This document shows, piece by piece, positions 5,377-43,300 of a stretch of 64,000 nucleotides of DNA (its first letter is position 1; each line of letters opens with the position of its first letter). Origin of the DNA: Candidatus Falkowbacteria bacterium (GTDB taxonomy: Bacteria; Patescibacteriota; Patescibacteriia; Patescibacteriales; UBA12465); NCBI GenBank assembly GCA_012800315.1, contig JAAZJO010000001.1:773-64772 (forward strand). The letters are read 5' to 3'. The translations under genes and the position numbers were made by a program. The notes under the pieces were generated by a model, which was given only the letters and a program-made list of their open reading frames with translations, was not told the origin of the DNA and made no database searches.

Positions 5377-7176
5377 TTATAACTTATTATCTGAAATAAT
5401 CATCTCCACTCCTTCCGGCAAATCTCTTTCTTGGTTACTCCTTTTAGCTACTTGATTCTGATCATTATGCTTAGTTATTGTTTCAATCTTTTTTATTTCT
5501 CGTCCCCGAAAATCAACCGGCTTCGCTTTAGCCAAATCTGCTAAAGATAGGGTTGGGGTTTCATTAACTAAAACCGTTTCTTCTTTTAAGCGTTTTTTTT
5601 CTATCTCTTTTTCTATTTTTCTTTTTTCCACTTCCAATCTTTTTTCTTCCTTTTTGCGACTCAAACATTCTTTACAATATACCGGCCTAATACCATCGGG
5701 AATAAAAACTGTAGTTGTCATTTGGCCACAACTAGAACAAATCGCTTCATGCCCCGAGGTACTAACAATTCGGGGATGATTAGCTGATTGATTAGTTAAT
5801 TTAGCTTCTGTCTTTACTTTCTCCGAGCGATTTTCTGTTTTAGACACTGAGTGAACTGAATTAGTGGCTAAAACTTTCTTGGCTGGCCCAATATCCTCAT
5901 TATAACTTTCATGCCAACGCATAATTTTTTCTTCAACACTCGCTCTTTCTGAAGCATACTTCTCTCTAGAATAAGCGATTACCTTAGCTGTATTATTAGT
6001 TTTTTCACTTGCCGGCAACGGCGGTAGTCCGCGAGCAGAAAATGGCGCTGAAGCAACTCCATCAATCATTAGTTTTAAATACATTTCATACTTCGGCAAA
6101 TTAACTAAATCTTCCTGGGTAAAAGTTGGCAAAAACTCTTTCTCTAATTCTTCAGCATCAGCCGCTCCCACCCGATAAGCCACTATTGTTCCCACATTAC
6201 CAAAAACTGCTGGTTTAACTTTTTCGCTTAGTTGTTCAATGTATTGGTGAGCTAAAACAAGATTTAAACGATATTTTCTTGCTTCTGATAAAATATTAGC
6301 AAAAGAATCAGTGGAAAAGTTTTGAAATTCATCAATATACAAATAAAAATCACGACGCTCTTTTTCTGGAATATCTACCCGGCTCATCGCTGCTAACTGA
6401 ATTTTAGTAATCATCATCGCTCCGAGTAAAGCTGAATTATCTTCTCCAATACGTCCTTTTGATAAATTCATAATTAAAATCTTGCCACTATCCATTATTT
6501 CACGGATATTGAATGATGACCTTACTTGACCAACAATATTTCTCATTAAAGAGTTAGATAAAAATTGACCAACTTTATTTTGGATAGGTGAAACCGCTTC
6601 CGAGGCAAATTTATCAGCATAGCTAGAAAATTCCTTCTCCCAAAAAGCCTTAACTACCGGATCTTTAATATTAGCAACTACTCTCTTACGATAATTCTTA
6701 TCTGATAACATTCTAATAATACCCATCAAAGTAGAACCCGGAAAATCTAAAATTGCTAAAATAGCATTGCGTAAAATATATTCCAAACGAGGCCCCCAGG
6801 AATCAGCCCAGAGTTTTTGGAAAACGCCGATCAAGCCAGAAGCGACTAAATGACGTAAATGTGGCTCAACTTGCTCAACCACATTAAAAGCAATCGGAAA
6901 ATCAATGTCTGCCGGATTAAAATAAACGACATCTTGGATACGATTATCTGGAATATAATCAATTATTTTTTCTGCTAAATCACCATGTGGATCAACCACT
7001 GCCACCCCAAAGCCAGCACGAATATCATCAACAATCATGTTTTCCAAAACAGTTGACTTACCCATACCAGTTTTCCCAATCAAATACATGTGGCGACGCC
7101 GGTCATCAGTTTTTATGCCGAATTTTTTAAATTCGTTACGATAAGTTGTTTGGGCAAAAACCGTAATATCCTTCAT
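5377..7176 (-). CDS. VirD4/TraG/TraD-like (type IV coupling-protein-like) P-loop ATPase, soluble, with K/E-rich linker and C-terminal CxxC-x17-CxxC zinc ribbon
   Basis: Walker A GKTGMGKST; Walker B-like FYLYIDEFQNF; RKYRLNLVLAHQYIEQL resembles the TraG/VirD4 C-terminal core. No N-terminal TM helices. C-terminal CSSCGQMTTTVFIPDGIRPVYCKEC has exactly 17 residues between the two CxxC pairs. Confidence 0.55.
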   Translation of the reverse strand: MKDITVFAQTTYRNEFKKFGIKTDDRRRHMYLIGKTGMGKSTVLENMIVDDIRAGFGVAVVDPHGDLAEKIIDYIPDNRIQDVVYFNPADIDFPIAFNVVEQVEPHLRHLVASGLIGVFQKLWADSWGPRLEYILRNAILAILDFPGSTLMGIIRMLSDKNYRKRVVANIKDPVVKAFWEKEFSSYADKFASEAVSPIQNKVGQFLSNSLMRNIVGQVRSSFNIREIMDSGKILIMNLSKGRIGEDNSALLGAMMITKIQLAAMSRVDIPEKERRDFYLYIDEFQNFSTDSFANILSEARKYRLNLVLAHQYIEQLSEKVKPAVFGNVGTIVAYRVGAADAEELEKEFLPTFTQEDLVNLPKYEMYLKLMIDGVASAPFSARGLPPLPASEKTNNTAKVIAYSREKYASERASVEEKIMRWHESYNEDIGPAKKVLATNSVHSVSKTENRSEKVKTEAKLTNQSANHPRIVSTSGHEAICSSCGQMTTTVFIPDGIRPVYCKECLSRKKEEKRLEVEKRKIEKEIEKKRLKEETVLVNETPTLSLADLAKAKPVDFRGREIKKIETITKHNDQNQVAKRSNQERDLPEGVEMIISDNKL

Positions 7177-7214: not shown

Positions 7215-7940
7215 CTAGCTTCTTACTTCACAAAGCTTAACATATTTTTTTCCAATAGCCGCAAACTCGGTCATTTCTTTAGCGGTATAACCAGCCTCTC
7301 CCTTAAGTTTAGCGTCAACTAATTCAGTATCTGATTTAAAATTTTGCAAATACCATTTTTCCGCCCCCTTAATTATTTCTCCCATTTTATCAATATCTTC
7401 TTTAACTAAAAGACCGGGGACAACCGTCGTTCTAAACTCATAAGGAAGTCCACTAGATATAATCATTTTAGCACTTTTTCTAATATTATCACAATTAACT
7501 TTAACTCCTACTACCTCTTCATATTTATCCAGCGGCGCTTTTAAGTCCATGGCGATATAATCAATTAATTTTTCTTTCAGCAATTTTTCAATCATGCCTG
7601 GGTTAGTACCGTTAGTATCTAATTTAACTAAATAACCAATTTCTTTTATTTTCTTAATAAAAGACGGTAAATCGGGATGCATAGTTGGCTCCCCGCCAGT
7701 AATAACAACCCCATCAAGGCGTCCAAATCTTTCCCTTAAAAAAAGAAAAAGGTCTTCAGTGGAAAGTGCAGAAAAACCTTTTTCTTCTTTATTTTTTACA
7801 TCCTCTCCCTGACGGGGCAGGACAAGCATTGGGTTATAGCAAAAACGACAACGGAAATTACAACCTTGGGTAAAGATTATGGCCGCTAAATGATCGGGGT
7901 AGTCAAGAAAAGTTAATTTCTCTAAACCACCAATTATCAT
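7215..7940 (-). CDS. nrdG: Anaerobic ribonucleoside-triphosphate reductase activating protein (radical SAM)
   Basis: CxxxCxxC cluster CNFRCRFCYN, glycine-rich SAM motif VVITGGEP, located downstream of nrdD. Confidence 0.85.
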   Translation of the reverse strand: MIIGGLEKLTFLDYPDHLAAIIFTQGCNFRCRFCYNPMLVLPRQGEDVKNKEEKGFSALSTEDLFLFLRERFGRLDGVVITGGEPTMHPDLPSFIKKIKEIGYLVKLDTNGTNPGMIEKLLKEKLIDYIAMDLKAPLDKYEEVVGVKVNCDNIRKSAKMIISSGLPYEFRTTVVPGLLVKEDIDKMGEIIKGAEKWYLQNFKSDTELVDAKLKGEAGYTAKEMTEFAAIGKKYVKLCEVRS

Positions 7941-7955: not shown

Positions 7956-8096
7956 TTATTCGGCGCAAACCTTAAAGGTTTTTCTATCCTTATATTCAGA
8001 CGCTTTACCGGGATTATAGTTCTTTACCGGTGTTAACCAGCCAACCACACGGCTGTAAACAATACATTCTTGTCTTTGAGTTTTAATTGGGCTCAT
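7956..8096 (-). CDS. 46-aa ORF carrying the NrdD C-terminal glycyl-radical motif (detached NrdD C-terminus)
   Basis: Below the ORF-track size cutoff. My translation: MSPIKTQRQECIVYSRVVGWLTPVKNYNPGKASEYKDRKTFKVCAE. The YSRVVGW...N.GK..EY.DRK pattern matches the extreme C-terminus of class III RNRs (..YsRi.GY..pv..wN.GK..Ef..R). It lies between nrdD and nrdG, 15 nt upstream of nrdG. Confidence 0.6.
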   Translation of the reverse strand: MSPIKTQRQECIVYSRVVGWLTPVKNYNPGKASEYKDRKTFKVCAE

Positions 8097-8165
8097 ATTT
8101 TTGTTTTATATTAAAATTATAAATAATATTTACTTAAATTACAATGTGCAAAATAATTAACAACT

Positions 8166-10217
8166 TTATTCATTAGCTAACCTAATTTCATCAACTGTTT
8201 CCGTATAACCAATCTCTGCATCACATTTCGGACAATATTTATGTTCACCCGAAAGATAGCCATGTTTCGGACAAATAGAGAAAGTCGGAGTAATGGTGAA
8301 GTATGGTAAGCGATAATTATTAACAATCTTCTTAACTAATTTCTTAGCGGCATCACCATTAGGCAAACGTTCTCCGATATAACCATGTAAAACAGTGCCA
8401 CCGGTATATTTAACTTGTAAATCATCCTGTAAATCAAGGGCGGTAAAAATATCATCTGTATAGCTAACATGAAGATGCGTAGAATTAGTATAATAAGGAT
8501 CGGCATTAAACTTTTTCACAGCCTCAGTGTTTGAACAAATAATTCCTGGATAAAGCTGCTGATCTTTTTTAGCAAAACGATAGGTGCAACCCTCCCCTGG
8601 GGTAGCTTCAAGATTATATAAATTATTAGTTTCGTTTTGATAATCCATTAATTTCTCTCTCATGAAATCTAAAATTTCAGCGGCAAAAGCAGCGCCCTCT
8701 GGAGTAGAAATATCTTTACCCATTAAATTTAAAAGTGCTTCATTCATGCCATTAATCCCAATCGTAGAAAAATGGTTTTTCCAATAAGAACCAAAACGTT
8801 CATAAATAGAACTTAAATAAAACATGGAGTATGGATACAATCTATCCTGAGTTAATTTCTCAACAATCTTACGCTTTATCTCTAAACTCTCTTTAGCTAA
8901 ATCCATTAAATTAAGCAATCTCTCTTTAAATTCTTCTTTGCTCTTAGATAAATAACCCAAACGAGCTAGATTAATTGTCACCACGCCAATGGAGCCAGTT
9001 AGTGGATTAGCGCCAAATAAACCGCCGCCCCGTTTTCTTAATTCACGATTATCCAATCTTAAACGACAACACATTGAGCGAGCATCATCACGATTCATAT
9101 CAGAATTAACAAAATTTGAAAAATAAGGAATACCATATTTAGCAGTCATCTCCCACATTGGATCTAAACATTTTCTATCCCAATCAAAATTTTTATCAAT
9201 TTGATAAGTCGGGATTGGAAAACCAAAAACACGTCCAGTTGAATCCCCTTCTAACATAATTTCAGCAAAAGCCTGATTAAACATATCCATTTCCTCTTGG
9301 AAGTCTTTATATTTTTCTGGCATCATCTTGCCGCCGATAATGACATTTTCTTCACCCACCTGTGCTGACGGGGTAACATCAAGCGTAACGTTAGTAAACG
9401 GCGTTTGAAAACCAACACGGGTTGGAACATTAATATTAAACATAAACTCCTGCAAAGCCTGTTTTACTTCTTTAAAAGTCAAACCATCATAGCGAATAAA
9501 CGGCGCTAAATAAGTATCAAAATTAGCAAATGCTTGCGCACCAGCCGCCTCTCCTTGCATCGTATAAAAGAAATTAATAATCTGGCCTAAGGCACTACGA
9601 AAATGCTTTGGTGGATTACTTTGCACCTTTTCGCTTACCCCGCGAAAACCGCGAATCAATAAATCTTTTAAGTCCCAGCCACAGCAATAAGGAGCCAATA
9701 AGCCTAAATCATGGAGATGTAAATCACCATTAACATGAGCAAAACGAATATTTTCTGGATACATCTTATTTAACCAGTAACGAGCCGAGATTGAAGAAGC
9801 AATATAATTATTCAAACCCTGAACAGAAAAGCTCATATTACTATTTTCTTTTAAGCGCCAATCAGCCCGACCCAAATAATCCTCCATTAATTTCTCATCC
9901 GAAACAACATTACTAATATCACGCATTTGGCGGTGCTGTTCACGATAAATAATATAAGCCTTAGCAATCTTAATTAATTTATTCTCAATTAAAACTTCCT
10001 CCACGATATCTTGAATTTCCTCAACAGCCGGAATACTGTTTTTATGGAACTTGGCATTAATTTTCATCACTACTTGATCGCCCATTTTCTTCGCCAAATG
10101 ACGATCATCTACGCCCACAGAGGCAGCCGCCTTATAAATAGCATTCACAATTTTGTCTTGATCAAAGTCGGCAATATCGCCAGATCTTTTGATTACTTTA
10201 CTAATGATTTCAGACAT
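8166..10217 (-). CDS. nrdD: Anaerobic ribonucleoside-triphosphate reductase (class III), large polypeptide that lacks the glycyl-radical loop
   Basis: N-terminal ATP-cone (VIKRSGDIADFDQDKIVNAIYKAA). Conserved NrdD core (..CCRLRLD.., ..GSIGVVTINL..). C-terminal Zn ribbon CPKHG...CPKCDAE. The ORF stops 15 aa after the Zn ribbon, before any RxxG(Y/W) motif. Confidence 0.9.
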   Translation of the reverse strand: MSEIISKVIKRSGDIADFDQDKIVNAIYKAAASVGVDDRHLAKKMGDQVVMKINAKFHKNSIPAVEEIQDIVEEVLIENKLIKIAKAYIIYREQHRQMRDISNVVSDEKLMEDYLGRADWRLKENSNMSFSVQGLNNYIASSISARYWLNKMYPENIRFAHVNGDLHLHDLGLLAPYCCGWDLKDLLIRGFRGVSEKVQSNPPKHFRSALGQIINFFYTMQGEAAGAQAFANFDTYLAPFIRYDGLTFKEVKQALQEFMFNINVPTRVGFQTPFTNVTLDVTPSAQVGEENVIIGGKMMPEKYKDFQEEMDMFNQAFAEIMLEGDSTGRVFGFPIPTYQIDKNFDWDRKCLDPMWEMTAKYGIPYFSNFVNSDMNRDDARSMCCRLRLDNRELRKRGGGLFGANPLTGSIGVVTINLARLGYLSKSKEEFKERLLNLMDLAKESLEIKRKIVEKLTQDRLYPYSMFYLSSIYERFGSYWKNHFSTIGINGMNEALLNLMGKDISTPEGAAFAAEILDFMREKLMDYQNETNNLYNLEATPGEGCTYRFAKKDQQLYPGIICSNTEAVKKFNADPYYTNSTHLHVSYTDDIFTALDLQDDLQVKYTGGTVLHGYIGERLPNGDAAKKLVKKIVNNYRLPYFTITPTFSICPKHGYLSGEHKYCPKCDAEIGYTETVDEIRLANE

Positions 10218-10275: not shown

Positions 10276-10734
10276 TTATTTTCTCCCTTTAATTAATTTA
10301 TTTAATTCTTTTTGAAATTCACGTGCATCTTTAAATGATTCATAAACCGAGGCATAACGAATATAAGCAACCTGATCAACTTTTTTTAGATTTTTCATTA
10401 CTACCTGGCCAATTTGGCGAGAAGTAATTTCATTATCTTTCAAACGTTGTAAATCACGTTCAATAGAATGAATCAATTTTTTAAAACGATCTTCAGTAAT
10501 CGGGCGTTTCTCACATGATTTTTTTAAACCATTAACCATTTTCTCCCGATTATAAGCCTCTCGTCGTCCATCTCGCTTCACAATCACTAAATCAAGCAAT
10601 TCTATTTCCTCATAAGTTGAAAAACGAAAACAACATTTTAAACATTCACGACGGCGACGAATAGATAAACCATCGGGAGCCACCCGAGAATCAACTACTT
10701 TTGTATCAGGATAATAGCAAATTGGACATTTCAT
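10276..10734 (-). CDS. nrdR: Transcriptional repressor NrdR (Zn ribbon + ATP-cone)
   Basis: MKCPICYYPDTKVVDSR....CLKCCFRFSTYE Zn ribbon followed by an ATP-cone. I prefer the ATG at 10734 (MKCP..) over the track start at 10758, because NrdR proteins start at the Zn ribbon. Confidence 0.9.
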   Translation of the reverse strand: MKCPICYYPDTKVVDSRVAPDGLSIRRRRECLKCCFRFSTYEEIELLDLVIVKRDGRREAYNREKMVNGLKKSCEKRPITEDRFKKLIHSIERDLQRLKDNEITSRQIGQVVMKNLKKVDQVAYIRYASVYESFKDAREFQKELNKLIKGRK

Positions 10735-10781
10735 AGGTTTTATAGTGAAATACCACATTTTGTGGCTATTTTAAGTATTGA

Positions 10782-10797
10782 CCACTAAATATTGTAT
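10782..10797. promoter_or_regulatory. Candidate NrdR box upstream of nrdR
   Basis: CCACTAAATATTGTAT versus consensus acaCwAtATaTwGtgt, 13/16 by my alignment. It lies 48 nt upstream of the nrdR start. Confidence 0.4.
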
Positions 10798-10913
10798 TCA
10801 ATATCAATTTTAGCAAAATTTATAATATGGGTCAATTAAGCTAAAATTAATAAAAAAATAACTAATTTATAAAGTTATCCACAGAGAAATATAAAATTTA
10901 TTTTAAAAAAAAT

Positions 10914-25259: not shown

Positions 25260-28200
25260 TTAATTAAGAATATAACAATTATTTGTCCAACTTCCGGTAT
25301 AATATTCACATTTAGCCGGATTAACAAACCCCCTATTAAAATTACAACCAGAAACGGAGCAATACGGATGACCAGCAGCTAAAGCGATTTTTCCTACAAA
25401 AGCTCCGGGAGAAGTTAACTTCTCATTTTCATCACAAACTGGCAAATAAGGATTCTTTGATTCAATGTCCATCTCAACCAGACAATCAGTACCTAAAGGA
25501 GTCTCTAATTTACTAGTCGCTCTTCGCCAAACAAGAACATCACTCCTCCTCTCCCCATTTTCTTCAGCATTAAAATAATACTCTTTCTCCACTTTATCGC
25601 TCTCATTTCCAAAGCTATCAATCGCTGAAATAGCAAAATAATTAGCTCCTTGAGGAAATTTATTTAAAGGAAATGATAAGTTATTTTCCGTACCAATTGA
25701 ATCAAAGGTTTCCGCATATTTTCCAGAACTTATGCCATGATATAAGCGATAAAAAGCGGTATCATCATTATTCGCTTGCCAAGAAAAATTAAACATTGAA
25801 TTCTTAATAATGACATCAAGCCCGGTTGGTGTAGCTGGTGCTTTTTTATCAGTCGGAGTAGCCATCACTTCATTAGATAAAGCACTCTCTGTTTTATTAG
25901 TCGCAACAATCGTTAACTTAAAAATATATTGCTGATTATTAGTTAGCCCATCAATCTTATAAGTACACTTATAAACTGAACCTTCTTTAGAGCAAATTCC
26001 TTCGGGTTTTATTTTTTTACTCATCATTAAACCACGACCAGAGCGCAAATAATAAATCTTGTAAGAATCTACCTGATCAACAGAAGATTCCCACTTAACT
26101 TCTACCTCTCCCCCATTTTTCATATCTCTGACTTCAACAATATTACCACTCGGCAAAATTGTTTCTCGGAAAAAATATGTTTCTTTTAATAAATTAGAGA
26201 AACTTCCTTTTTTAGAAATCGGATTATTAGAAATTGCTGGTAAATCATCAAAGGTTTCGGCGGTGCCAGCATCACGACAATAATAAAATTTATAATTATA
26301 ACTTGAATAATCATCTCCCTGTCCCTTATCTAACCAAGGAGACCATGTCCCATCAGAATTAACTGCTGGCCATGGATTCTGACAAAGGAAAATATAAAGA
26401 TCGCTAGTATTATAATAACCATTACCAGTCTTAATCTTATTACAACCACTGCCACTGGCAGAGCAATCATTAGAAAGATATTTAGACATATCAATCGTTG
26501 CTTTCAGCTTAGCTTCAACATCCGTTGCACCTGCTTTCGCAGAAACTAAAAGGCTATTTTGCGATAAAGGAGCAGAGGTCGCAAAAGCCTGATCATTATT
26601 AATTGACCAAGTCCAATCCCAAGAATAACCCTCTACAGGATTTAATAATTTACCATCAACACTATAAGCACCAGCACTAAACAATTTATCTCTATCAGCA
26701 ACTGTATCAAAAGTGGGGTTTAAAATATCACTATCATTTTCATTAAGATCATTACTAGTTGTCTTAAATAAATATGATGCTGGCCTAATCTTGACATTAT
26801 CTATTGCGCAAATTCCAGCGTTCACTCCTTGGCTCGGAAGAGTGACAAATTTAAAACTATAAGAATTTTGATAAGAAGTTTTATTAAAAGTTACTGGCTT
26901 GTTATTCATCTCTCCATCTTTAAATCCTGATCCCTTCATGCCCACACCAGAATAACTTAAAACCCCCGTCCGACTATCAAGATTTTCATCCCCTTTTACT
27001 ACCACATAAAAATTAGCAGCTGGAGAAAGTAGGTTTTTCGGGCTAAAAATTAACTCAGTTTGCGATCCATTTTGCACAGCGCTAACACTACCAGGTACCC
27101 GACAATATAATTTATCAGCTGAAGGAGCTTCAGCCAAAGCGCGTTTATTAGAATTATTAAAGACACGACTAATTTTTGAATTTATTTTTTTCCAAATATG
27201 AACAAAAATATTCTTTGTCTGTGAATTAATTAAATCTTCAGTGGTAATATTTTCTGCTAAAAAAGTCCCGGCTGGACAAAGCTTTTTGCCATATTCTAAT
27301 TCTTCATACAATAAAAAATTATCACTAAAACTGGAAACGTTCATCGGCTGATTAAAAACAATTCTAATTGTAGCATTGCGACAAACATTTGTTTCCGAGG
27401 CAATCGGCGAAGTTTCAATAATGCTTGGTCGGGCCTCGCAACAAGTACTAGAATTACAGCCAATCGTGGCGATTGAACCACAATCACTGTCCTGAGAGCA
27501 ACCACAACATAATCCCCGATTAGCTCCCGAGCAATTTCCGACATTAGCTAAACAATGTAAATTGGGAGTTGTCTCACTAACACAAGGATCAATTTCTGCT
27601 TCTGGATTACAGCAACAAGCCCCACAATCAGATCCTTCTCCACCAGCACCAGTCTCCTGCAAACAAGCAAAACCATTGGTGCCACACGCGTTGAAATCAC
27701 AACGATCCTTTGTTTGACTATCGCTACAATCTAAGCCAGCCCCAACTGATGGATTGCCGCATTTATCATTACATTCCTCTATACTAGAAAATTTAGGCGT
27801 GGTGGTTGGTGTTGTTTCGCAAGCTAAAGGATTATCTGCCGCTGACTGGCAAGCATAATAAGCACAATAACCCTTATTTTCTCCTGTTTCTATTTTGTTA
27901 CCACTCTTACACTTAGAGGTAGTTTTATCATAACAGCAATTTGCCTCATTTGAACATTTTTCCTGATCATTATCAAAAAAGCGACAATAATCACTGCCCA
28001 CTCCTGCCTGACAACCACTAAGGCAAGAATCTATTTTTTTAAAATAACCTATTTTAACTGGAGTGGTAGAAGCACAAACATAAGGATCATTTAGTGAACA
28101 TCCATAATAGGAGCAATATCCATAATTAGCACTATTTTTATCATCACTAATAACCGTTGAATCTTTAATCCCTCGGCAATAATCATCATCAGGTGTGCTT

Positions 28201-31200
28201 GTATTATTTGAATCAAAACAACAAGCGCTTGAATGATCACCGCAGCTCGCCTGATCAGTTAAGCCGGCACAATCCACACAAATACCTTCTGGGTGTTCTG
28301 TAGTAATGGAGCAATATTTAGAGCTACTACCAAAACAATTACAGGCCGCATCACGTGCCGCCGTAGTTTCTCCAGCCTGCGCACAACCAGAACAATAACC
28401 ATAAGTATTATTATTGTTTGTGATATCAGAACCACATTTTCCAGTACAAGTTAAGCCAGCACAGCAATCTTGTTTTTCATATCCCAAACGACAACAACAC
28501 TCACAAGTCGGAACAACATTAATAACACAATTATCCGCCTCACCAGCCACTAAATTATCAACGCACTTAGCGTCTTTAGCTGAACAAACTTTATCAGAGA
28601 CACAACGTCCTTCTTTGTTTATTTCTTGACAATTTAAACCGGCATCACAAGTGCGACGACATTTACCTGCCTCCCCGTCTTGAACACAAGTTCTATTGCC
28701 AGTCTTAGTCCAACCAGCTGGACAAGAAGCTGCCCAAGCAATTTCCCATTGTCCTGAACTATTACAAGTCTTTTCAACAGTCTCCATCTCAGCGGCAGAA
28801 ACACAACGATAAGAAAGCATCGTGCCCGTAAAAGCACCTATATTGCCGCGCTCACGCCAAGTATTTATTGTTTCCTCTTTATACGGTTCAACTGCCACCG
28901 TGTTTTTATAAAATTTATTACAATAAGCTAATTTATCAATTCCGGACCCTGAAAATCCATCAGGATCTGTCTCCCAAGCCCCAGTCTCTAAGTTCCAATG
29001 CTGATTAACTTTTCCGGACCAATACATAATACGCGGAATCTTATTCGCTGACTGATTAACTAGTTTCGGAATATAAATCTTAGTTGGAAAATCACAAACA
29101 CCTTGACTATCTTTTTTATTTTGGACACATCTATCTAGTTCACTATTATAAGTACAAGTAGATTCATCACACCCGGGAACATTCTGACAACTATTATCAC
29201 AAGTACCTATTATTTTTTGATAGCTAGTTAGAGCTGAGGAGCAAGAACCCGGACTATTTGGACAACTAACTCCTTGATAACAAGAACCTAAATATTTTGA
29301 TAAACCTAAACAACTATCAAAAATTGAAGGAAGATTATCAGGGCTCGGATCATCTTCGGTGCCAGTATTATTTCCATCTATCTCAGTACTAAAACTCCAC
29401 TCAAAAACTGATGTTGGAATATTTACAAAACACTCACTCAAAGAAGCAACACATTGTCCTTTTTTATAAGTATTTGATGGACAGCATATTTTTCCTGCTC
29501 CCGCTGAACAACCATCATCATTAAGACATTCGGCCACTGTAAAATTAAGTTCATTACTACTTCTCTGATTATGAGTATTAACAATTTTAACACCGCCAGT
29601 AGTTGCGTCTGAGGGCACCTCTGCTTTAATTTTATCAGCACCACCTTCTTTTAAAACATTACCCGTCTCATCACCACTGCCTGTTACTGTTTTATCTAAA
29701 TAAAATTTAACGGCAATATTACTTGTTTTTCTACCAAAATATTCCCCCCAAAAAGCAACCGCCGTTCCAGCTGTTCCTTGTCCGGGATCAATTTTACATA
29801 AACTAGGCGCTAAAGCTAAATTATTATTAAGCTGAAAAACATTTGGATTTAAGTTTTGGGTAGAAATAATAGTCTCGCCTAAATCAATTTCTATTTGATA
29901 AAAATCTTCAGCCATTTCTGGCGCTTTCACAATTATTTGATGATCATTCCAAACAGAGTTAGCACAAATACTGGGGAAAGAATAAGAAGCCTCTATTTTA
30001 TTGCTTCCGCTAACAAAATAAACATGACTATTGCCTCTTGAGCCCCCAAAACCAGCTCCAGTAATTGTAATGTATTGCCCTACTGGACCACGCGAAACTT
30101 TTTGCCCATTTTCATCAACTTCTAGTGGAGTAAAAGATTTAATATAGGGACCAGAGTTTTCATCAGCTAATTTAGTAAATTTTAGAAAATTACTTTTTTG
30201 TACCTTACCCTCCACCACCGTCTCAACAAAGCTGCCAGAATCTCCTTTTCTAATATTAGGAATAGTTGAGGTGCCAGTTAGACCGCTCTGATCATTAAAA
30301 GAAGAATACAGAGCACCAACGTTGGATTTATAATTACCAAAATAAGCCTTGCCAGCATATAAATTAACTCCTTGATAATTAACTTGGGAATTTAAAGCTC
30401 CGACTACTGGATCAAGAGTGCAAAGCCCTGGACGACTAATATTATTAACTATTAAGTTATTTATTTTTGGTCCATTCTCATCGCCAGTTTTATCCGATAA
30501 GTTATCTTTAGTGATAACTTCAATTTGACCACTTTGCGCACCGCTTGGAATAGCAATGATAATTTGTTCATCACTCCAAAAATCAACACAAGCTGTATTT
30601 ATAGCTGAAGGGGAAACACCAACCCGAGGTGAATCAGTGCCTAAAAAAATCACCTGACTAAGCTCTGCGTCATATTCACCAAAGTTTTTTCCGATTATTG
30701 TTAAAAAATTATTAACAGCACCATTTGGAGTTTCTGTGTCACAAGTCCCCGCTCCACAATCATCATCTGATAAACAGGCTTTATTAATATTGTTATCGCA
30801 AAAACCACCAACCGGACTAATTCCTAAAATAACTGGAGAACCAACACAAAGACATGATTCCGGATCACAAGTAGTGTATTCTGAGCAACGATTATTATCG
30901 GCATCGCAACGCGCATTTGTTAAGTCGGCATCACAAGAAGAACCCGCACTACCTTGTGGTTGACATTTACAATCTTGGTCACAAAAATAGCCACTGGCAC
31001 AAATTTGATTATTGGCCTGACAAACACCAGAAATTGTATTAGCATTACAATCTTTTGGTATAACAAAGCAATTATCAGTTGAACCAATACAATTTCCCCA
31101 ATGACCGCCCGAGCAAAACATCGCCCCACCACAACCACAAGACAGCGAAGTTCCATCAACACACACACTACCACTACCATCACCAGAAGTTGCTCCGCCC

Positions 31201-31586
31201 AACTTATTTAAAATAAAAATAGCAATCGCCCAAGATGATAAAATAATTACTAAACCAATGGTAGCGTTTTTTAAAATCTTTTTTGCGCCAGTAATTTTCT
31301 CTTCATCGCCGCCCGACATCAACCACTTAAAACCAGCATAAATAATTAATAAAACAGCGATAATACCAAGAAGACCTAATAGAATATTAATTATTCTCCC
31401 AGCAATCGCCCGCGGATCAGTACTAACCAAAACTCCATCCAGACCTGAATCAACTTCTCCCATGCCAAAATCAGCTTGTGCTAAAGCAAACTTAGTAAAA
31501 AATAAACAAGCAATTAAACAAAACCCAAAAATGTATTTTTTAATGTTTTTTTTGTTCATTTTTTTATTCATTTTATTTATTGACAA
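25260..31586 (-). CDS. 2108-aa giant surface protein: TrbC/VirB2-like pilin-type N-terminal membrane module + Cys-dense region + IPT/TIG-like, SbsA-Ig-like and FN3-like domains
   Basis: One uninterrupted ORF. N-terminal ..FALAQADFG..DPRAIAGRIINILLGLLGIIAVLLIIYAGFKWLMSGGDEEKITGAKKILKNATIGLVIILSSWAIAIFILNKL. IPT-like segments (SPVILGISP..FLTIIGKNFG; IKSFTP..YITITGAGFG; LCKIDPGQGTAGTAVAFWGEYFG). SbsA-Ig-like PSIIETSPIASETNVCRNATIRIVFNQPM. FN3-like PATPTGLDVIIKNSMFNFSWQAN. The start may instead be a downstream Met (M6 or M10), which would remove the 10-nt overlap with the upstream gene. Confidence 0.8.
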   Translation of the reverse strand: MSINKMNKKMNKKNIKKYIFGFCLIACLFFTKFALAQADFGMGEVDSGLDGVLVSTDPRAIAGRIINILLGLLGIIAVLLIIYAGFKWLMSGGDEEKITGAKKILKNATIGLVIILSSWAIAIFILNKLGGATSGDGSGSVCVDGTSLSCGCGGAMFCSGGHWGNCIGSTDNCFVIPKDCNANTISGVCQANNQICASGYFCDQDCKCQPQGSAGSSCDADLTNARCDADNNRCSEYTTCDPESCLCVGSPVILGISPVGGFCDNNINKACLSDDDCGAGTCDTETPNGAVNNFLTIIGKNFGEYDAELSQVIFLGTDSPRVGVSPSAINTACVDFWSDEQIIIAIPSGAQSGQIEVITKDNLSDKTGDENGPKINNLIVNNISRPGLCTLDPVVGALNSQVNYQGVNLYAGKAYFGNYKSNVGALYSSFNDQSGLTGTSTIPNIRKGDSGSFVETVVEGKVQKSNFLKFTKLADENSGPYIKSFTPLEVDENGQKVSRGPVGQYITITGAGFGGSRGNSHVYFVSGSNKIEASYSFPSICANSVWNDHQIIVKAPEMAEDFYQIEIDLGETIISTQNLNPNVFQLNNNLALAPSLCKIDPGQGTAGTAVAFWGEYFGRKTSNIAVKFYLDKTVTGSGDETGNVLKEGGADKIKAEVPSDATTGGVKIVNTHNQRSSNELNFTVAECLNDDGCSAGAGKICCPSNTYKKGQCVASLSECFVNIPTSVFEWSFSTEIDGNNTGTEDDPSPDNLPSIFDSCLGLSKYLGSCYQGVSCPNSPGSCSSALTSYQKIIGTCDNSCQNVPGCDESTCTYNSELDRCVQNKKDSQGVCDFPTKIYIPKLVNQSANKIPRIMYWSGKVNQHWNLETGAWETDPDGFSGSGIDKLAYCNKFYKNTVAVEPYKEETINTWRERGNIGAFTGTMLSYRCVSAAEMETVEKTCNSSGQWEIAWAASCPAGWTKTGNRTCVQDGEAGKCRRTCDAGLNCQEINKEGRCVSDKVCSAKDAKCVDNLVAGEADNCVINVVPTCECCCRLGYEKQDCCAGLTCTGKCGSDITNNNNTYGYCSGCAQAGETTAARDAACNCFGSSSKYCSITTEHPEGICVDCAGLTDQASCGDHSSACCFDSNNTSTPDDDYCRGIKDSTVISDDKNSANYGYCSYYGCSLNDPYVCASTTPVKIGYFKKIDSCLSGCQAGVGSDYCRFFDNDQEKCSNEANCCYDKTTSKCKSGNKIETGENKGYCAYYACQSAADNPLACETTPTTTPKFSSIEECNDKCGNPSVGAGLDCSDSQTKDRCDFNACGTNGFACLQETGAGGEGSDCGACCCNPEAEIDPCVSETTPNLHCLANVGNCSGANRGLCCGCSQDSDCGSIATIGCNSSTCCEARPSIIETSPIASETNVCRNATIRIVFNQPMNVSSFSDNFLLYEELEYGKKLCPAGTFLAENITTEDLINSQTKNIFVHIWKKINSKISRVFNNSNKRALAEAPSADKLYCRVPGSVSAVQNGSQTELIFSPKNLLSPAANFYVVVKGDENLDSRTGVLSYSGVGMKGSGFKDGEMNNKPVTFNKTSYQNSYSFKFVTLPSQGVNAGICAIDNVKIRPASYLFKTTSNDLNENDSDILNPTFDTVADRDKLFSAGAYSVDGKLLNPVEGYSWDWTWSINNDQAFATSAPLSQNSLLVSAKAGATDVEAKLKATIDMSKYLSNDCSASGSGCNKIKTGNGYYNTSDLYIFLCQNPWPAVNSDGTWSPWLDKGQGDDYSSYNYKFYYCRDAGTAETFDDLPAISNNPISKKGSFSNLLKETYFFRETILPSGNIVEVRDMKNGGEVEVKWESSVDQVDSYKIYYLRSGRGLMMSKKIKPEGICSKEGSVYKCTYKIDGLTNNQQYIFKLTIVATNKTESALSNEVMATPTDKKAPATPTGLDVIIKNSMFNFSWQANNDDTAFYRLYHGISSGKYAETFDSIGTENNLSFPLNKFPQGANYFAISAIDSFGNESDKVEKEYYFNAEENGERRSDVLVWRRATSKLETPLGTDCLVEMDIESKNPYLPVCDENEKLTSPGAFVGKIALAAGHPYCSVSGCNFNRGFVNPAKCEYYTGSWTNNCYILN

Positions 31587-34300
31587 TTACCATCAACCCC
31601 CAAAACATTAGTCGCCGTACCAAAACAACAAGAAGGACTAGTTTCTGTCGCTACACAAGACTCACTAGCGCTAGGCTTATAGCAATTTTGATAAATATCT
31701 CTAATACCTGAACCAGCTTGAACATGATAAGTCATTGATTCTAAAAGAGGAGTATGCATTATCCAAGAAATTGTTTTGTCTGGCTCGCCATCAAGTGATT
31801 GAAAGGGAGTTTCTATATCAATATTTTCATTTTTCACCCAATAACCAACTGCTTGATTAGCTGAACTCCATAAATTTATTAATTTATGTTCAACCGTCGT
31901 TAGCCCGTTATTTACCTTACGACTACCAGTGGTTAAAGTACTATTCATCATTAAAGTATTCCAAGCTATTTTTATCGGCTCAGCTAAGCCCACCCCCGTT
32001 GCTCCTTGAACTGGAGTAATTGATTCAATCTTCGGTGGCGTCAAATTAATCGTATTATTAACAAAGAAAGAAAAGCGATAATTATCTTTCTTATTATGAT
32101 TATCCTCAGCACTAAAATTATCATTATAAAAATTTAGTGGCCCATCTGAAACATTATTACGATCACCATCAAAAGAATTAAGAGCCAAATCAACCACTCC
32201 ATTAATTTGAGCGCTAGCGCTTGGATAATTATTACCGTCAATATCTTGGCAAGTGTTATAACCCAAAGATGTTGGTGAACAAATATTATAAGGGGAGTAA
32301 GCTGTGCAATCCGCATTAGTTGAACAAGTTTTTAAATCAGCTGTTTTCATTTTTACAGCTAAATGGCTACCCCCCGGCAAGCAATAAATTTTTTCCCCAC
32401 AACCATTAACTCCACATTCTTTATCCGAAATAAACTCTACTGTTCTATAAGCATTGCTCACAATAAATCTCCCCGCCACATAATCCCCCACGCAAGTTTT
32501 TGCTCCAACTGCCCCCTCGCATTTATAAGACTGACAATCAGAATCAGCAACACAAGGCAAGCCATCAGCAAAACTATCTGCCTTATAATTAACTACCTTA
32601 ATATAATCAGCTACCTCTGAAGCCAAACCAGCAATCTTTATCGGATTAACTGGTTCATCAAAATTTAACTGAATAACTGTATTCATCGGCACATCTTTTC
32701 TGTCTCTAACTTCATCCAAGCTCTGACGATCCTGACCACCAGCTGGCGGAGTAATTTGTAAAGCACTTGGGTTGCTAGTACTAACTTCAATCTTATTGCC
32801 ACTAGCTCCAGCCACTTTAGAAACTAAACTAATTTTTGCATCACCGGTGTTAGAAACATCAAAAGAGGAATTGCCGCTTAAAATTGCATAAATACTTCTC
32901 ACTTGCTCCGAAAAATCACCTTCTGGATTTATTTTTATAATATTAGCGCCAGAATTTGTGCTAGAAAAAGTATAAGTATCAGAACCAAGTGTAAGTGTGT
33001 CTGCTAATTGTTCTGGCGACATCTCAATCAGCCAAGCATTGCCAGCACTCCGATTATCAGCGGTTAAAGTAAAGTAACCAGCAAATTTAGCCGTATTTTG
33101 AGCATCAAAACTAGCCGAACCTAAAAGATTAGTGTCGTTATTGCCATCAAATAGCTGTACTTTAGACGTATCAGCAGAAATCACTGCTTTAAACTGCGTT
33201 AATGTTCCTTGATAATTAAGCGGAGCAGCTACCGCTACTGGCGATTCACCAATTGAAGTAATTTTCTCAACCTTGGCGGCTTGATAAACTTTAGGCATGG
33301 CCTTAACAGTAATTGAACCTTCTGCTTTTTTTGCCTCGGCAGTTTTATTACTTACATCATTTTCATTATCCGGCAGAGGGAAAATGCCACCCACAACTAC
33401 TTGAGGCGGAGTTAAATCAATTCGCGAACTAACTTCAAATCTCCAATTAAAATAATTATCATAACAATTTTTAAACATGGAAGTGTCATCTATTTTTTTA
33501 ACCTTATCAGTCATTTTAACCGAATACCAAACATTATTAACTCCATCCCCTAAATAACTAAGAGGGGTTAAAACTAAAGTTCGGCTATCACTAGAAATAG
33601 AAACTTTAACTTCAGTTATATTAGCATTTACTTTTGGACAACTATTATTACAGGAATCTCCCAATTCTGTTTTAAAGATTCTAATGCTTTCCGGATTCAT
33701 ATTACTGCAATCATTATTATTACAAGCACAAGCAGAGCCAGAAGCATCAACACAGACACTTTCCGCTTTCAGTGGTTCTTTAAAAGTAATTGTAATTGCA
33801 CTATTGCGCGCTACATCAGTTTGCTTATTTTCTGGATAAACAGTATCAACTGAGCAAGCGCCAATAGCGCTTAGGCCACTATTAGTCGTCAAGGAGATGC
33901 GTCCAATACCACCTTGATTACTCCCCTCTTTAACACCCGTTGCCTCTGATAACTTAGATAAAATAAAAGTAGCTATTGACCAAGAAGATAAAATAATTAT
34001 TAAACCAATAACAGCGTTTTTCAAAATTTTTTTAGCCTTAGTAATTTTATCTTCATCGCCTCCCGAAGTTGTCCATAAAAATCCAGCATAAATTACTAAA
34101 AGCAAAGCGATTACCCCTAGAAAACTTAAAGTAATTTGAATAATACGACCAGCGATTGCGCGCGGATCAGCTTGTGATAAATTAATTACTTCCGCCACCG
34201 GCTCTGTGCCAAAATCAGCTTGCGCCAAAACAAAATTAGCCCCAACTGAAAAAACAATTAAGCTGAAAACAAAAATAAATACTTTAACTTTTTTTAACAT
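31577..34300 (-). CDS. 907-aa surface protein: TrbC/VirB2-like pilin-type N-terminal membrane module + three SbsA-Ig-like domains + Cys-rich segments
   Basis: The N-terminal ~120 aa are paralogous to the 2108-aa protein (..FVLAQADFG..DPRAIAGRIIQITLSFLGVIALLLVIYAGFLWTTSGGDEDKITKAKKILKNAVIGLIIILSSWSIATFILSKL). SbsA-Ig-like blocks: VDTVYPENKQTDVARNSAITITFKEPL, DVPMNTVIQLNFDEPV, IESITPVQGATGVGLAEPIKIAWNTLM. Confidence 0.8.
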   Translation of the reverse strand: MLKKVKVFIFVFSLIVFSVGANFVLAQADFGTEPVAEVINLSQADPRAIAGRIIQITLSFLGVIALLLVIYAGFLWTTSGGDEDKITKAKKILKNAVIGLIIILSSWSIATFILSKLSEATGVKEGSNQGGIGRISLTTNSGLSAIGACSVDTVYPENKQTDVARNSAITITFKEPLKAESVCVDASGSACACNNNDCSNMNPESIRIFKTELGDSCNNSCPKVNANITEVKVSISSDSRTLVLTPLSYLGDGVNNVWYSVKMTDKVKKIDDTSMFKNCYDNYFNWRFEVSSRIDLTPPQVVVGGIFPLPDNENDVSNKTAEAKKAEGSITVKAMPKVYQAAKVEKITSIGESPVAVAAPLNYQGTLTQFKAVISADTSKVQLFDGNNDTNLLGSASFDAQNTAKFAGYFTLTADNRSAGNAWLIEMSPEQLADTLTLGSDTYTFSSTNSGANIIKINPEGDFSEQVRSIYAILSGNSSFDVSNTGDAKISLVSKVAGASGNKIEVSTSNPSALQITPPAGGQDRQSLDEVRDRKDVPMNTVIQLNFDEPVNPIKIAGLASEVADYIKVVNYKADSFADGLPCVADSDCQSYKCEGAVGAKTCVGDYVAGRFIVSNAYRTVEFISDKECGVNGCGEKIYCLPGGSHLAVKMKTADLKTCSTNADCTAYSPYNICSPTSLGYNTCQDIDGNNYPSASAQINGVVDLALNSFDGDRNNVSDGPLNFYNDNFSAEDNHNKKDNYRFSFFVNNTINLTPPKIESITPVQGATGVGLAEPIKIAWNTLMMNSTLTTGSRKVNNGLTTVEHKLINLWSSANQAVGYWVKNENIDIETPFQSLDGEPDKTISWIMHTPLLESMTYHVQAGSGIRDIYQNCYKPSASESCVATETSPSCCFGTATNVLGVDGNCQ

Positions 34301-40327: not shown

Positions 40328-43300
40328 TTAACGCTGTTTAAATTCACAAATAGAATTAAAATCACAAAACCCACACAACGATGAGGGGGTTGGCGCAAAG
40401 TTTTGCTTCTTAATCAAAGAAATTTTTTCCTTGACCCATAATTGCACCTTAGTAATATCTTTAGCGGTAGCTGTAAAAGTGAGCTTCTCACCACTCTCTA
40501 CATAATAATAAGTCAGGGCACTCACTTTGATCCCTAAAAATTCTTCAGTAAATAATTGATATAAAATAAGTTGGCTCTTATCCTTAAGCTCTAATTTAGA
40601 TTTTGTTTGGCCAGTTTTATAATCAATTATTTCTAAAGTTCCGTCGGGCAGTTTATCAACTCTATCAATAGTTCCCTTAATAATCTCGCCGCCGATTTTA
40701 AAAGAAAAGCTCTTCTCTAAAAATATTATTTCCTGTGGCGGATTAGCTGAATAATTTTGCCAAAACTTCTTTAAAGCTTCAATCCCTTTTTTATAATAAG
40801 CTTCTCTTTCAGCTTTATTTTTATAACCATCCCCCTGCCAAAGCTCTTCATAAATTTCTAACAATCGTTTTTCGGTTAACAGTTTGGATAATTTATCTTG
40901 TTTCTCTTTTTTCTTTTTAGCTCCATCAAGTTCAGCAAATAAATCACCTTGCATTTTTCGCCATTCACTCATGGTTGGTAAAAGGAAATTATATAAAGTA
41001 CTATGTATAACACGACCAAAAATAAGATTGGACTTATCAGTTGAGGCTGGAATCTTTAAAACAAAAGCGTATTTATATTGTAATGGGCAAGTAGAAACAG
41101 CGGTTAATTGTGAAAAAGAAAATTTATCTGGCAAAGGATATTTTTCTTCTGTAGACAGTTGCTGACTACTAGCTTCTTGAGAGTTTAAATAATGTAAATC
41201 TCGTAAAAATTCATTTTTCTGTGTTAATTTAATTTCTGGTGCTAGAGAATCTTCTATCCCCATTTCTGATAAAAAACGTGATGGCTTTTTTTCGCGTACT
41301 CCGCCGTAATCTTTAGCGCCCGTTAAATATAACTCCTCCTTAGCTCGGGTGACAGCTACATAAAATAAACGGCGCTCTTCTTCTAAGTGGAAGTCTGCTC
41401 CCGCAACAGTCTTTTCCTTAACTAAATCATCTGGCAAAGGAATTTTTTCTCCGCGAGCAATGGTCGGAAATTTTTTATCTACTAAATTAACCAGAAAGAC
41501 ATATTGAAACTCTAAACCTTTTGAGCCATGAACTGTCATAATCTTCACTGTTTCATTATCAACAAAATCTAATTTAAGTGAACCTGTTTCTCCGGCCTCT
41601 AACTCCAAATTAATTGCGGCCAAAAAGTCTTTCAGATGTAAATCTGGCTCAGCCTCCTCCATTTTTTTTATTTTTTGATAAAACTGATTTAAATAAGAAA
41701 ATAATTCTAAGTCCCGATCATGATCTAAATCAGCTAATAGTCCCGACTCATAAACAAAGGTTAAAAATATTTTTGAAGTACTTTGCTGCGCCACTAAAGC
41801 AGAATGGGCAGTAATTAAATTTAATAGTTTTTTAATATTTTTAATACTTTCAGTACTCACTCCAGAAATAGAATCAATATTCTTTAGCGCTTCATATAAA
41901 GACCAAACCTTGCGAGTTGCTTTTTTATTAATCGTCACTAAATCAAGATGAGAAACTTTAAAAATATCCATATTCAAAACCCGAAAAAGGGCTGATGATT
42001 CATGATAATTATCTAGTAAACGCAAATAAGCTAAAATATCTAAAATAAGCGGTTTATAATAAAGACCGCGCCAAGACATAAATTGATTAGGAATATTATA
42101 ACGCCCAAGCGCTTTAACATAAGCATCAGCTGTATCATTAGCGCGCACTAAAATGGCAAAATCTGACCAACTAATTTTTTCCCCAGCCGCCTGTTTCCTT
42201 TGATAAATATCTAAGATCCTTTGAGCTACAAAAGAAGTTTCTTCTTCAGCTGTTTCAAAATTATAAAATTTAACCGCCGGCTCAGTTTTTGGTTTTTTAG
42301 CTATTTTACCCTTAGCTTTCAACTGTTTATTTATTTTTAGTTTCTCTTCTAAGCGATTAGGATTATTATTTTGAATAAAGCGATGAGCATAATCTAAAAT
42401 CTCCTGACGAGAACGATAATTTTCTGTTAAAACTAATTCAGCCGCCTTTTTAAAATCATCTTTAAATTGCATGATATTAGAAATAGAGGCACCGCGAAAT
42501 TTATAGATTGAATTATGAACAAAAATTTCATCAGCTACAAAATTATGAGTCCCAGCAATTTCTAAATCATAAACAAAATCCTTTTTTGTCTGCTCTTGAC
42601 GATCAACAACTTGATCATATACTATGCCCGAGTCACTCATAATTGGCACAGACATGCCGGGAAAAACATTTTTTGCTGGAACAACTGTTGCCTGCAAAAC
42701 TTTTTCCTTTGCTTTAGCAATTTTCATCTGCGGCTCAATCAAGCCAGCAAACTCTTTTTGTATTCTTAAAGCAATGCGACCTAAATATTTTAAATCATCA
42801 CTCTGTAAAAACAGGCTTTTCTTTTTAGCACCACTTACTATACTAAAACCCATTTTTTTCAATTTTGAAATTGTTATTTGATCAGTAGTTTCAATCCTTA
42901 AACAATGAAAAGCCTTAGGTTTGGCTAAAGAATTATTTTTACTTATTTTTGAATTATGCTTTTGAGAGCACATTTCTAAATTAATCTTGAATTTTGCTTT
43001 ATTGCCATAATTCGCCGTCTCTGCATAACAAGGCGCTGACTCTAAATCAAGATTAAGGTCTTGAGCTAAACGACGCACCCCCGCCTCTACTTTTAACTCC
43101 CGACTTAATTTTTCACTCCACTTTTTCTCATTCAATAAACTATCTCTTTCCCGACAATAATTAACCGGAATTCTGTATTTTAAAGACAATAATTCTTTGT
43201 AATAACCAGCTTCTGCTAGTGTCTTGAAACTGCGAACAGCTATTATTCTATCGGCTGATTTTTCTAATCGCAATTGCGAAGCTAAATCATTAGTTAAGCC

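Follow-up and report, generated by a model that had tools for sequence, protein, structure and literature searches.

How can an anaerobic ribonucleotide reductase (RNR) work when the gene for its catalytic chain ends before the loop that carries the radical? The question is raised by the nrdD locus in a 64,000-nt stretch of DNA of Candidatus Falkowbacteria bacterium (the whole of this stretch is referred to here as the window), in which a class III RNR, NrdD, of 683 residues terminates just past its zinc ribbon and the glycyl-radical loop is encoded by a separate, downstream open reading frame (ORF) of 46 residues, with all genes of the cluster on the minus strand. The comparative analysis presented here suggests that the locus probably encodes a functional class III RNR of two separately translated chains, in which the radical loop would be supplied in trans. 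This reading is supported by the anatomy of the locus, the conservation of the split, the selection that acts on it, the independent occurrence of the small gene, and the lack of a route by which the two parts could be joined. The first-pass annotation of this DNA had described a 683-residue NrdD without the loop, a loop-bearing 46-residue ORF opening with the ATG at position 8096, and a 69-nt AT-rich spacer with four in-frame TAA codons between them, and the ORF coordinates and family models matched this description exactly. It had also proposed a two-piece RNR with its radical segment provided in trans, after the manner of GrcA/YfiD, and this proposal is now favored by the comparison of about 80 species-level genomes and by the selection detected on both pieces.

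Anatomy of the two chains

Family models assigned the large ORF to the class III NrdD core with scores above their curated cut-offs and, as the first-pass annotation had anticipated, the C-terminal end of the models mapped to the small ORF. PF13597 (562 positions) aligned with the large ORF over model positions 1-529 (606 bits, cut-off 26.2) and with the small ORF over positions 530-562 (E-value 6.8e-7; 28.8 bits against the gathering score of 26.2). The NCBIfam model NF006126 (684 positions) was likewise divided, with positions 3-657 on the large ORF (1030 bits, cut-off 548) and 649-683 on the small ORF, and TIGR02487 scored 513 bits on the large ORF (cut-off 326). The ATP-cone of the large chain was found at residues 7-96, and an AlphaFold2 (AF2) model of the large-chain core matched solved class III RNRs in Foldseek (E-values 1e-30 to 1e-19). 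HMMER alignment with the Prevotella copri NrdD chain 8p23_A placed residues 382-384 of the query (MCC) on residues 418-420, such that Cys384 aligned with the cysteine of the MGC motif. In the P. copri enzyme, Cys416 is named as the partner of Gly711 (PMC11226230); as the 8p23_A chain has 743 residues versus 739 in the paper, we infer a 4-residue offset, on which residue 420 would be Cys416 and Cys384 would be its thiyl-radical equivalent. Alignment A6 shows no variation at C383 and C384, nor at the predicted zinc ligands C649, H652, C662, and C665. The C-terminus of the large chain reads ...CPKHGYLSGEHKYCPKCDAEIGYTETVDEIRLANE and is followed by TAA; the ORF thus ends 18 residues past the ribbon, and the RVxG[YFW] loop that follows the ribbon on the NrdD chain of other class III enzymes is missing from it. 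Across relatives the tail is variable except for its start, with most split-type large chains reading CPKC-D-x-E-x-G-[YFW] before they diverge.

The small ORF, whose translation is MSPIKTQRQECIVYSRVVGWLTPVKNYNPGKASEYKDRKTFKVCAE, encodes a free-standing protein that has its own ATG and carries the loop as YSRVVGW...GK. PF13597 (NRDD) was the sole Pfam family detected on it at an E-value ≤ 1, NCBIfam returned only NrdD models, and a sequence search of the PDB with the small ORF gave no match. Gly19, the predicted radical glycine, is the only invariant column (G702 in the numbering of the fused chain) in alignment A5 of 74 split and unsplit NrdD sequences. A protein search with the small ORF of NCBI, JGI, ENA, and Logan recovered 136 clusters at 90% identity, every one of them 41-65 aa in length. 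The coding sequence was found to be under strong purifying selection, with a mean proportion of nonsynonymous differences (pN) of 0.116 compared with 0.775 for synonymous differences (pS) over the first 40 codons, and a median ratio of nonsynonymous to synonymous substitution rates (dN/dS) of 0.09 in 310 unsaturated pairs. The ATG is invariant and the N-terminal MSP is conserved across relatives, and its start lies in an A-rich context that has T at -1, as for most window genes. This T was present in all 74 small ORFs examined; among the 40 window ORFs of at least 150 aa, which generally have A/T-rich leaders, it was observed at 30 starts. A Shine-Dalgarno sequence was absent upstream of the small ORF and likewise upstream of most window genes. 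Among the proteins compared (P-numbers; the loci compared are given L-numbers), the radical Gly is replaced by Trp in P0070 (VVWW), and P0125 and P0184 have the loop motif duplicated internally in tandem; these may be errors or real variants.

The split pair is flanked by an nrdG gene, which encodes a cognate activase of the radical S-adenosylmethionine (SAM) type, and by the gene of the repressor NrdR. Both had been regarded as intact in the first-pass annotation, and this was borne out by the NrdG2 model match and by the presence of the zinc ribbon and ATP-cone of NrdR (Table 1). The start of nrdG lies 15 nt past the stop codon of the small ORF, and the gene order nrdR-nrdD-small-nrdG was also found in L083 and L092. 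No terminator-like site was found between nrdD, the small ORF, and nrdG, and co-transcription of these genes is therefore likely.

Conservation of the split and distribution of the small gene

Orthologous loci were scanned with one genome per species, which yielded 80 loci with a large chain of 75-91% identity, mostly from metagenome-assembled genomes (MAGs) of Falkowbacteria or Patescibacteria and including two complete chromosomes (CP066698.1 and OW818634.1). Seventy-nine loci could be evaluated, that is, the window and 78 relatives (two more relatives end at a contig edge), and nrdD was found to be split in every one of them, with a stop shortly past the ribbon and a downstream ORF of the form M[SA]P...EC.VYSRV.GW. 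The first-pass annotation had called for such a comparison of orthologous loci, and the outcome agrees with its reading of the split. The presence of the small ORF at all 79 loci, together with the strong purifying selection, goes well beyond what chance would produce. Unsplit relatives, members of the same NCBIfam family, are more distant (58-62% identical, 702-755 aa) and derive, by source name, from Moranbacteria, Parcubacteria, Saccharimonadales, and Bathyarchaeota. These proteins read ...CPxC-x(3-6)-[CT]EVYSRVVGY..., or in fuller form ...CPxC-x(3-6)-[CT]EVYSRVVGYLRPV.QWN.GK..EF..RKTF, which places the cut in the short linker, only a few residues long, that joins the zinc ribbon to the strand leading to the radical glycine. 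In a second group of split proteins the second knuckle is degenerate (CPY[DNE]H); this group has an unsplit, long-linker relative in L188, and L122 and L195 are also unsplit, with linkers of 20-30 residues. These long-linker forms suggest that the linker may have expanded before a stop and a start were gained, perhaps on more than one occasion.

The small gene was also found in positions other than directly after nrdD. In L086 and L087, which are G+C-rich contigs of 2.6 and 3.2 Mb that do not belong to Patescibacteria, the order is nrdD-nrdG-small, with an nrdD product of 687 aa and a C-terminus of ...CPKCDEEMGYVEEEAAPSLEEASQR. The small gene of L083 and L084 overlaps the end of nrdD by 32 nt in another frame, and that of L089 and L090 follows mraZ-rsmH, with neither nrdD nor nrdG within 5 kb. 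The latter arrangement, a 48-aa glycyl-loop gene in a cell-division cluster (L089 5001-5147 and L090 4167-4313), was observed on 14 contigs. In addition, 23 contigs of IMG/VR (L094-L116) encode a peptide related to the small ORF (60-88% identity) and have no nrdD, nrdG, or nrdR within 6 kb; the 23 do not overlap with the 58 viral contigs that encode an NrdD core, most of which have an unsplit nrdD and at least four a split one. One of the small-gene-only contigs encodes an Amidase_2 lysin, RuvC, HNH, and a giant Laminin_G protein, and the others have weak hallmarks only, as judged by PHROGs and Pfam on the neighboring genes. No free-standing small gene was found in GenBank phages.

A profile of the small chain was subsequently run against 1.84 billion representatives and returned 4134 hits at an E-value ≤ 1e-3, of which 378 were at ≤ 1e-10. 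The best 150 of these 378 hits were all 47-115 aa in length; nearly all start with Met and lack the ribbon, and many have the canonical RVVGY. Eighty metagenome loci were sampled with a profile of the Y-type peptides and comprised (i) 43 with an unsplit nrdD; (ii) 21 with a split nrdD and the small gene adjacent; (iii) one with the order nrdD-nrdG-small; (iv) 14 with the small gene and no nrdD in the examined DNA; and (v) one that was unclassified. Proteins of 75-115 aa that combine their own CxxC...CxxC ribbon with an NrdD glycyl loop were observed in L167 (4818-5114, adjoining a rubrerythrin-like gene and far from any nrdD), L183, L180, and P0167, and are by sequence a second kind of autonomous NrdD-type radical domain. 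At L117, L143, L148, L195, and L196, the nrdD matches are broken by insertions of ~0.5-1.1 kb in the coding region, which are probably inteins or introns in related lineages.

This distribution bears on an alternative in which the small protein is a GrcA-like spare part for a full-length NrdD encoded elsewhere, and the local truncated NrdD is inactive or otherwise employed. Small genes that are unlinked to nrdD (L089/L090) or lie on predicted viral contigs would suit such a role, as would the free-standing ribbon and loop proteins (L167), and the search for further RNRs covered window ORFs of at least 540 aa. We nonetheless consider the alternative unlikely, as the truncated NrdD retains every conserved catalytic element, is conserved like an essential gene at 75-91% identity over ~80 genomes, and is always accompanied by the small gene and nrdG, and often by nrdR. 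Furthermore, the profile hits of Falkowbacteria type (84-91% identity) were all of truncated length (677-703 aa), and an unsplit protein of the W-type (RVVGW) was not seen.

Spacer sequences and the proposed separate translation of the two parts

A further alternative is that a single chain is restored, whether by read-through, by frameshift or bypass (as in T4 gene 60), by an intron (as in T4 nrdD), or by protein trans-splicing. Introns and inteins often interrupt RNR genes (PMC3653736), and certain loci would be compatible with restoration: the two ORFs share a frame in the window, the frame of the small ORF is open back into nrdD at 7 of the 79 loci, which have short spacers, and the ORFs of L083 overlap in different frames. 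When the spacers were compared, however, they were found to range freely from 11 to 201 nt with no conservation of sequence, and the frame offsets between nrdD and the small ORF were 0, 1, and 2 at 31, 20, and 23 loci, respectively. The relation of the two ORFs in the window, which the first-pass annotation had correctly reported as one of shared frame, is therefore a coincidence. Its view of read-through as implausible was upheld, since in 72 of the 79 loci a stop at the position of the nrdD stop or beyond it closes the frame of the small ORF, and five consecutive in-frame TAA codons (the nrdD stop and four in the spacer) occur in the window. Programmed recoding would demand a fixed frame relation, which is not seen, and is also contradicted by the invariant start of the small ORF and by the other gene orders, with the small gene after nrdG (L086/L087/L143) or elsewhere in other lineages. 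Read-through, frameshift, and bypass were rejected on these grounds.

The spacers are, in addition, too short for group I or group II introns, and the window spacer was found to have no Rfam match at an E-value ≤ 1, no stable RNA fold (z +1.15, weaker than shuffles), and no ORF within it, such as that of an endonuclease. An intron or other RNA element in the spacer was rejected accordingly, and the suggestion of the first-pass annotation that the gap could be the scar of an excised element gained no support from spacers that are short, unconserved, and, in the window, devoid of a known RNA element. The 18-residue tail of the large chain and the 9-residue head of the small chain are too short for the halves of a split intein. 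No means of joining the two parts is supported, and we regard the restoration of a single chain as very improbable. A promoter-like sequence, TTGTAA-17-TATAAT, is present in the spacer (8144..8116), with such sites no commoner than in shuffles, and TAWAAT was detected upstream of the small ORF at 30 of 74 loci versus 35% expected from composition; no claim is made for a promoter of the small gene's own.

The peptide might instead serve as a regulator or decoy that titrates NrdG or blocks the barrel, with the phage copies inhibiting the RNR of the host. Such a role would be compatible with phages that have the small gene alone, and the catalytic role of the peptide is itself a prediction from sequence. 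We give this alternative little credence: a large chain without its own glycine loop would have no radical source in the absence of the peptide, and the radical glycine and loop motif are kept exactly as in catalytic NrdDs, the viral copies included. Two other possibilities of the kind raised by the first-pass annotation, an artefact of assembly or sequencing and a recent pseudogenisation of nrdD, are hardly credible; although MAGs do have indel errors and the spacer is AT-rich and of low complexity, the identical architecture was found in 79 independent assemblies (long-read or complete chromosomes among them), the small-protein clusters come from four sources, the dN/dS of the small ORF is low (see above), nrdG and nrdR are intact, and the conservation of the split under selection across ~80 species-level genomes rules out both.

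Proposed operation of a two-chain enzyme. A mechanism for the two-chain RNR can be outlined from the working of single-chain NrdD and of GrcA. The nrdR-nrdD-small-nrdG genes would be transcribed together, and the small chain would be translated from its own ATG. NrdG would then abstract a hydrogen from Gly19 of the peptide, which would be held non-covalently in the barrel beside Cys384, and the radical would shuttle between Gly19 and Cys384 as in one-chain enzymes. After cleavage by oxygen, only the 46-residue piece would have to be remade; the oxygen-labile part would likely be a cheap, replaceable subunit of 5 kDa, and the peptide-only genes on viral contigs would fit such a consumable subunit. 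The split is probably ancestral to a large group of Falkowbacteria-like Patescibacteria and is also present in other lineages and on predicted viral contigs. What we infer in this scheme is that the chains form a complex, that activation takes place on the peptide, and that the peptide is exchanged after damage. The glycyl-radical domain of one-chain NrdD, which is made up of a zinc site, a loop that is buried, and a tail, is highly mobile, with disorder in the inactive states (PMC11226230), and the free protein GrcA can supply pyruvate formate-lyase (PFL) with a radical (PMC13450708). In a more specific version, put forward tentatively, the 5-kDa loop subunit would be exchangeable, being activated by NrdG off the enzyme and swapped after damage by oxygen or side reactions, and phage-carried copies would keep the host reductase running during infection. 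The peptide-only gene of the viral contigs could possibly be a new and very small (46-residue) auxiliary metabolic gene.

Several points weigh against the two-chain reading. To our knowledge, an untethered peptide of 46 residues with a stable radical has no precedent in class III RNR. Docking of the small chain is not supported by modelling, as AF2 with the fused sequence and a 74-row alignment gave a good core but a predicted local distance difference test score (pLDDT) below 50 at residues 640-729, which span the ribbon, the tail, and all of the small chain; a single-sequence AF2 model of the fused chain had a pLDDT of 37.5 and was useless. The search for an RNR elsewhere in the window, which was confined to ORFs of at least 540 aa, found none among them. 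Lastly, the viral nature of the small-gene-only contigs is a prediction derived from the IMG/VR call and weak hallmarks.

Features of the locus and its surroundings

The features of the nrd cluster are collected in Table 1. Upstream of nrdR, a weak NrdR-box-like palindrome with three mismatches to ACACWATATATWGTGT was observed at 10782-10797 (not above chance), with a promoter-like TTGACC-17-TAAAAT nearby at 10835..10807. Immediately downstream of nrdG, a coupling ATPase that is TrwB/VirD4-like and has a treble-clef zinc finger at its C-terminus is encoded at 5380-7176 (-). Elsewhere in the window were observed (i) two genes that overlap by a few bases (25263-31586 and 31580-34300, both -) and encode giant proteins of 2108 and 907 aa, each with an N-terminal T4SS_pilin domain followed by immunoglobulin-like (Big_5, TIG) domains; and (ii) a gene at 40331-44404 (-) for a 1358-aa helicase-nuclease of UvrD/AddA type that has an intein (Intein_splicing at residues 277-631, plus a Hint module) directly after its N-terminal helicase domain.

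Table 1. Features of the nrd cluster in the window, in order of transcription, and examples of the small gene at other loci
Feature	Position	Strand	Remarks
nrdR	10276..10758	-	Repressor of nrd genes, first in cluster; Pfam Zn_ribbon_NrdR (E-value 3.2e-19) and ATP-cone (E-value 3.3e-20)
nrdD, large chain (683 aa)	8166..10217	-	ATP-cone, catalytic barrel, and zinc ribbon; without glycyl-radical loop
Codons of Cys383-Cys384	9066..9071	-	Finger-loop motif SMCCRLRLD; HMMER alignment to 8p23_A
Zinc-ribbon codons (residues 649-665)	8223..8273	-	CPKH...CPKC; last conserved element of large chain
Tail of large chain (18 residues)	8169..8222	-	DAEIGYTETVDEIRLANE; outside the family models
TAA stop of nrdD	8166-8168	-	Directly after the tail
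Intergenic spacer (69 nt)	8097..8165	-	12% G+C; four in-frame TAA codons
Small chain (46 aa)	7956..8096	-	Loop ...ECIVYSRVVGWLTPVKNYNPGKASEYKDRKTF...; PF13597 match
GGC codon of Gly19	8040..8042	-	Predicted radical glycine; RVVG[WYF] motif
nrdG	7215..7940	-	Radical-SAM activase; TIGR02495 NrdG2 (210 bits, cut-off 131); Pfam Radical_SAM and Fer4_12
Small gene in L095	6001-6141		
Small gene in L091 and L115	5001-5153		

Comparison with known systems

Glycyl radical enzymes are thought to require a radical loop that is tethered to the barrel, and it has long been asked how the activase gains access to a glycine that lies buried when the enzyme is active. With the single-chain NrdD/NrdG systems (phage T4, Escherichia coli, Thermotoga maritima, and P. 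copri; PF13597, NF006126/TIGR02487), the locus described here shares the ATP-cone, the barrel, the finger-loop cysteine, the ribbon, and the RVxG[YFW] loop, as well as an adjacent radical-SAM activase and control by NrdR. In those systems the loop lies 3-6 residues past the ribbon on the same chain, whereas here a stop, a spacer, and a new start come between them, and the two pieces have gained a tail of 18 aa (large chain) and a head of 9 aa (loop piece).

In its proposed mode of action the small chain resembles GrcA/YfiD, also a small, separate protein with only the glycyl-radical region that acts in trans and is presumably activated by the activase of its parent enzyme. GrcA, however, has 127 aa and is a homologue of the C-terminus of PFL, whereas the small ORF matches only the NrdD family. 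GrcA is a backup for a full-length PflB that oxygen has cleaved. The small chain described here, in contrast, has an adjacent parent that is loop-less in 79 of 79 loci; given a large chain devoid of the loop, it would be obligatory, unlike GrcA.

Divided RNRs of other classes are also known. The class II enzyme NrdJa/NrdJb (PMC9669993) and the nrdA-a/nrdA-b genes of phage Aeh1 (PMC3653736) similarly produce a catalytic chain from two consecutive genes as a two-chain enzyme, but with a different cut site, and the radical-bearing element is never the detached piece. The Aeh1 split is due to a homing-endonuclease gene, none of which is present at the window locus. Phage nrdD genes can likewise occur in pieces, as in T4, with its group I intron I-TevII, and in the fragmented nrdD of Aeromonas phage phiAS4 (PMC3653736); these are isolated cases of an intron or of unexplained recent fragmentation, in contrast to the old, lineage-wide, fixed cut found here, which is under selection and lacks an intron. 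Class I RNR (NrdA with NrdB) also keeps its stable radical on a polypeptide separate from the catalytic barrel; yet NrdB is an unrelated, ferritin-like metalloprotein that acts over a long path of proton-coupled electron transfer and has neither homology nor chemistry in common with the glycyl loop.

The literature search, which left most subscription journals outside its reach, found no split NrdD and no free-standing glycyl-radical peptide of an RNR, and a 2026 review places such small proteins only in formate-lyases; the two-gene arrangement thus appears to be undescribed for class III RNR. Annotation pipelines record the large chain as a normal NrdD, and the small ORF is either missed or labelled "anaerobic ribonucleoside-triphosphate reductase", such that metabolic reconstructions of ultra-small bacteria may misjudge an essential step. 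A separate loop of 46 residues would make activation of the peptide, insertion into the barrel, and replacement after oxygen damage separable for study. If the loop is indeed an exchangeable subunit, the enzyme would be the first glycyl radical enzyme to consist obligatorily of two chains, and "spare-part" systems would no longer be confined to the formate-lyases.

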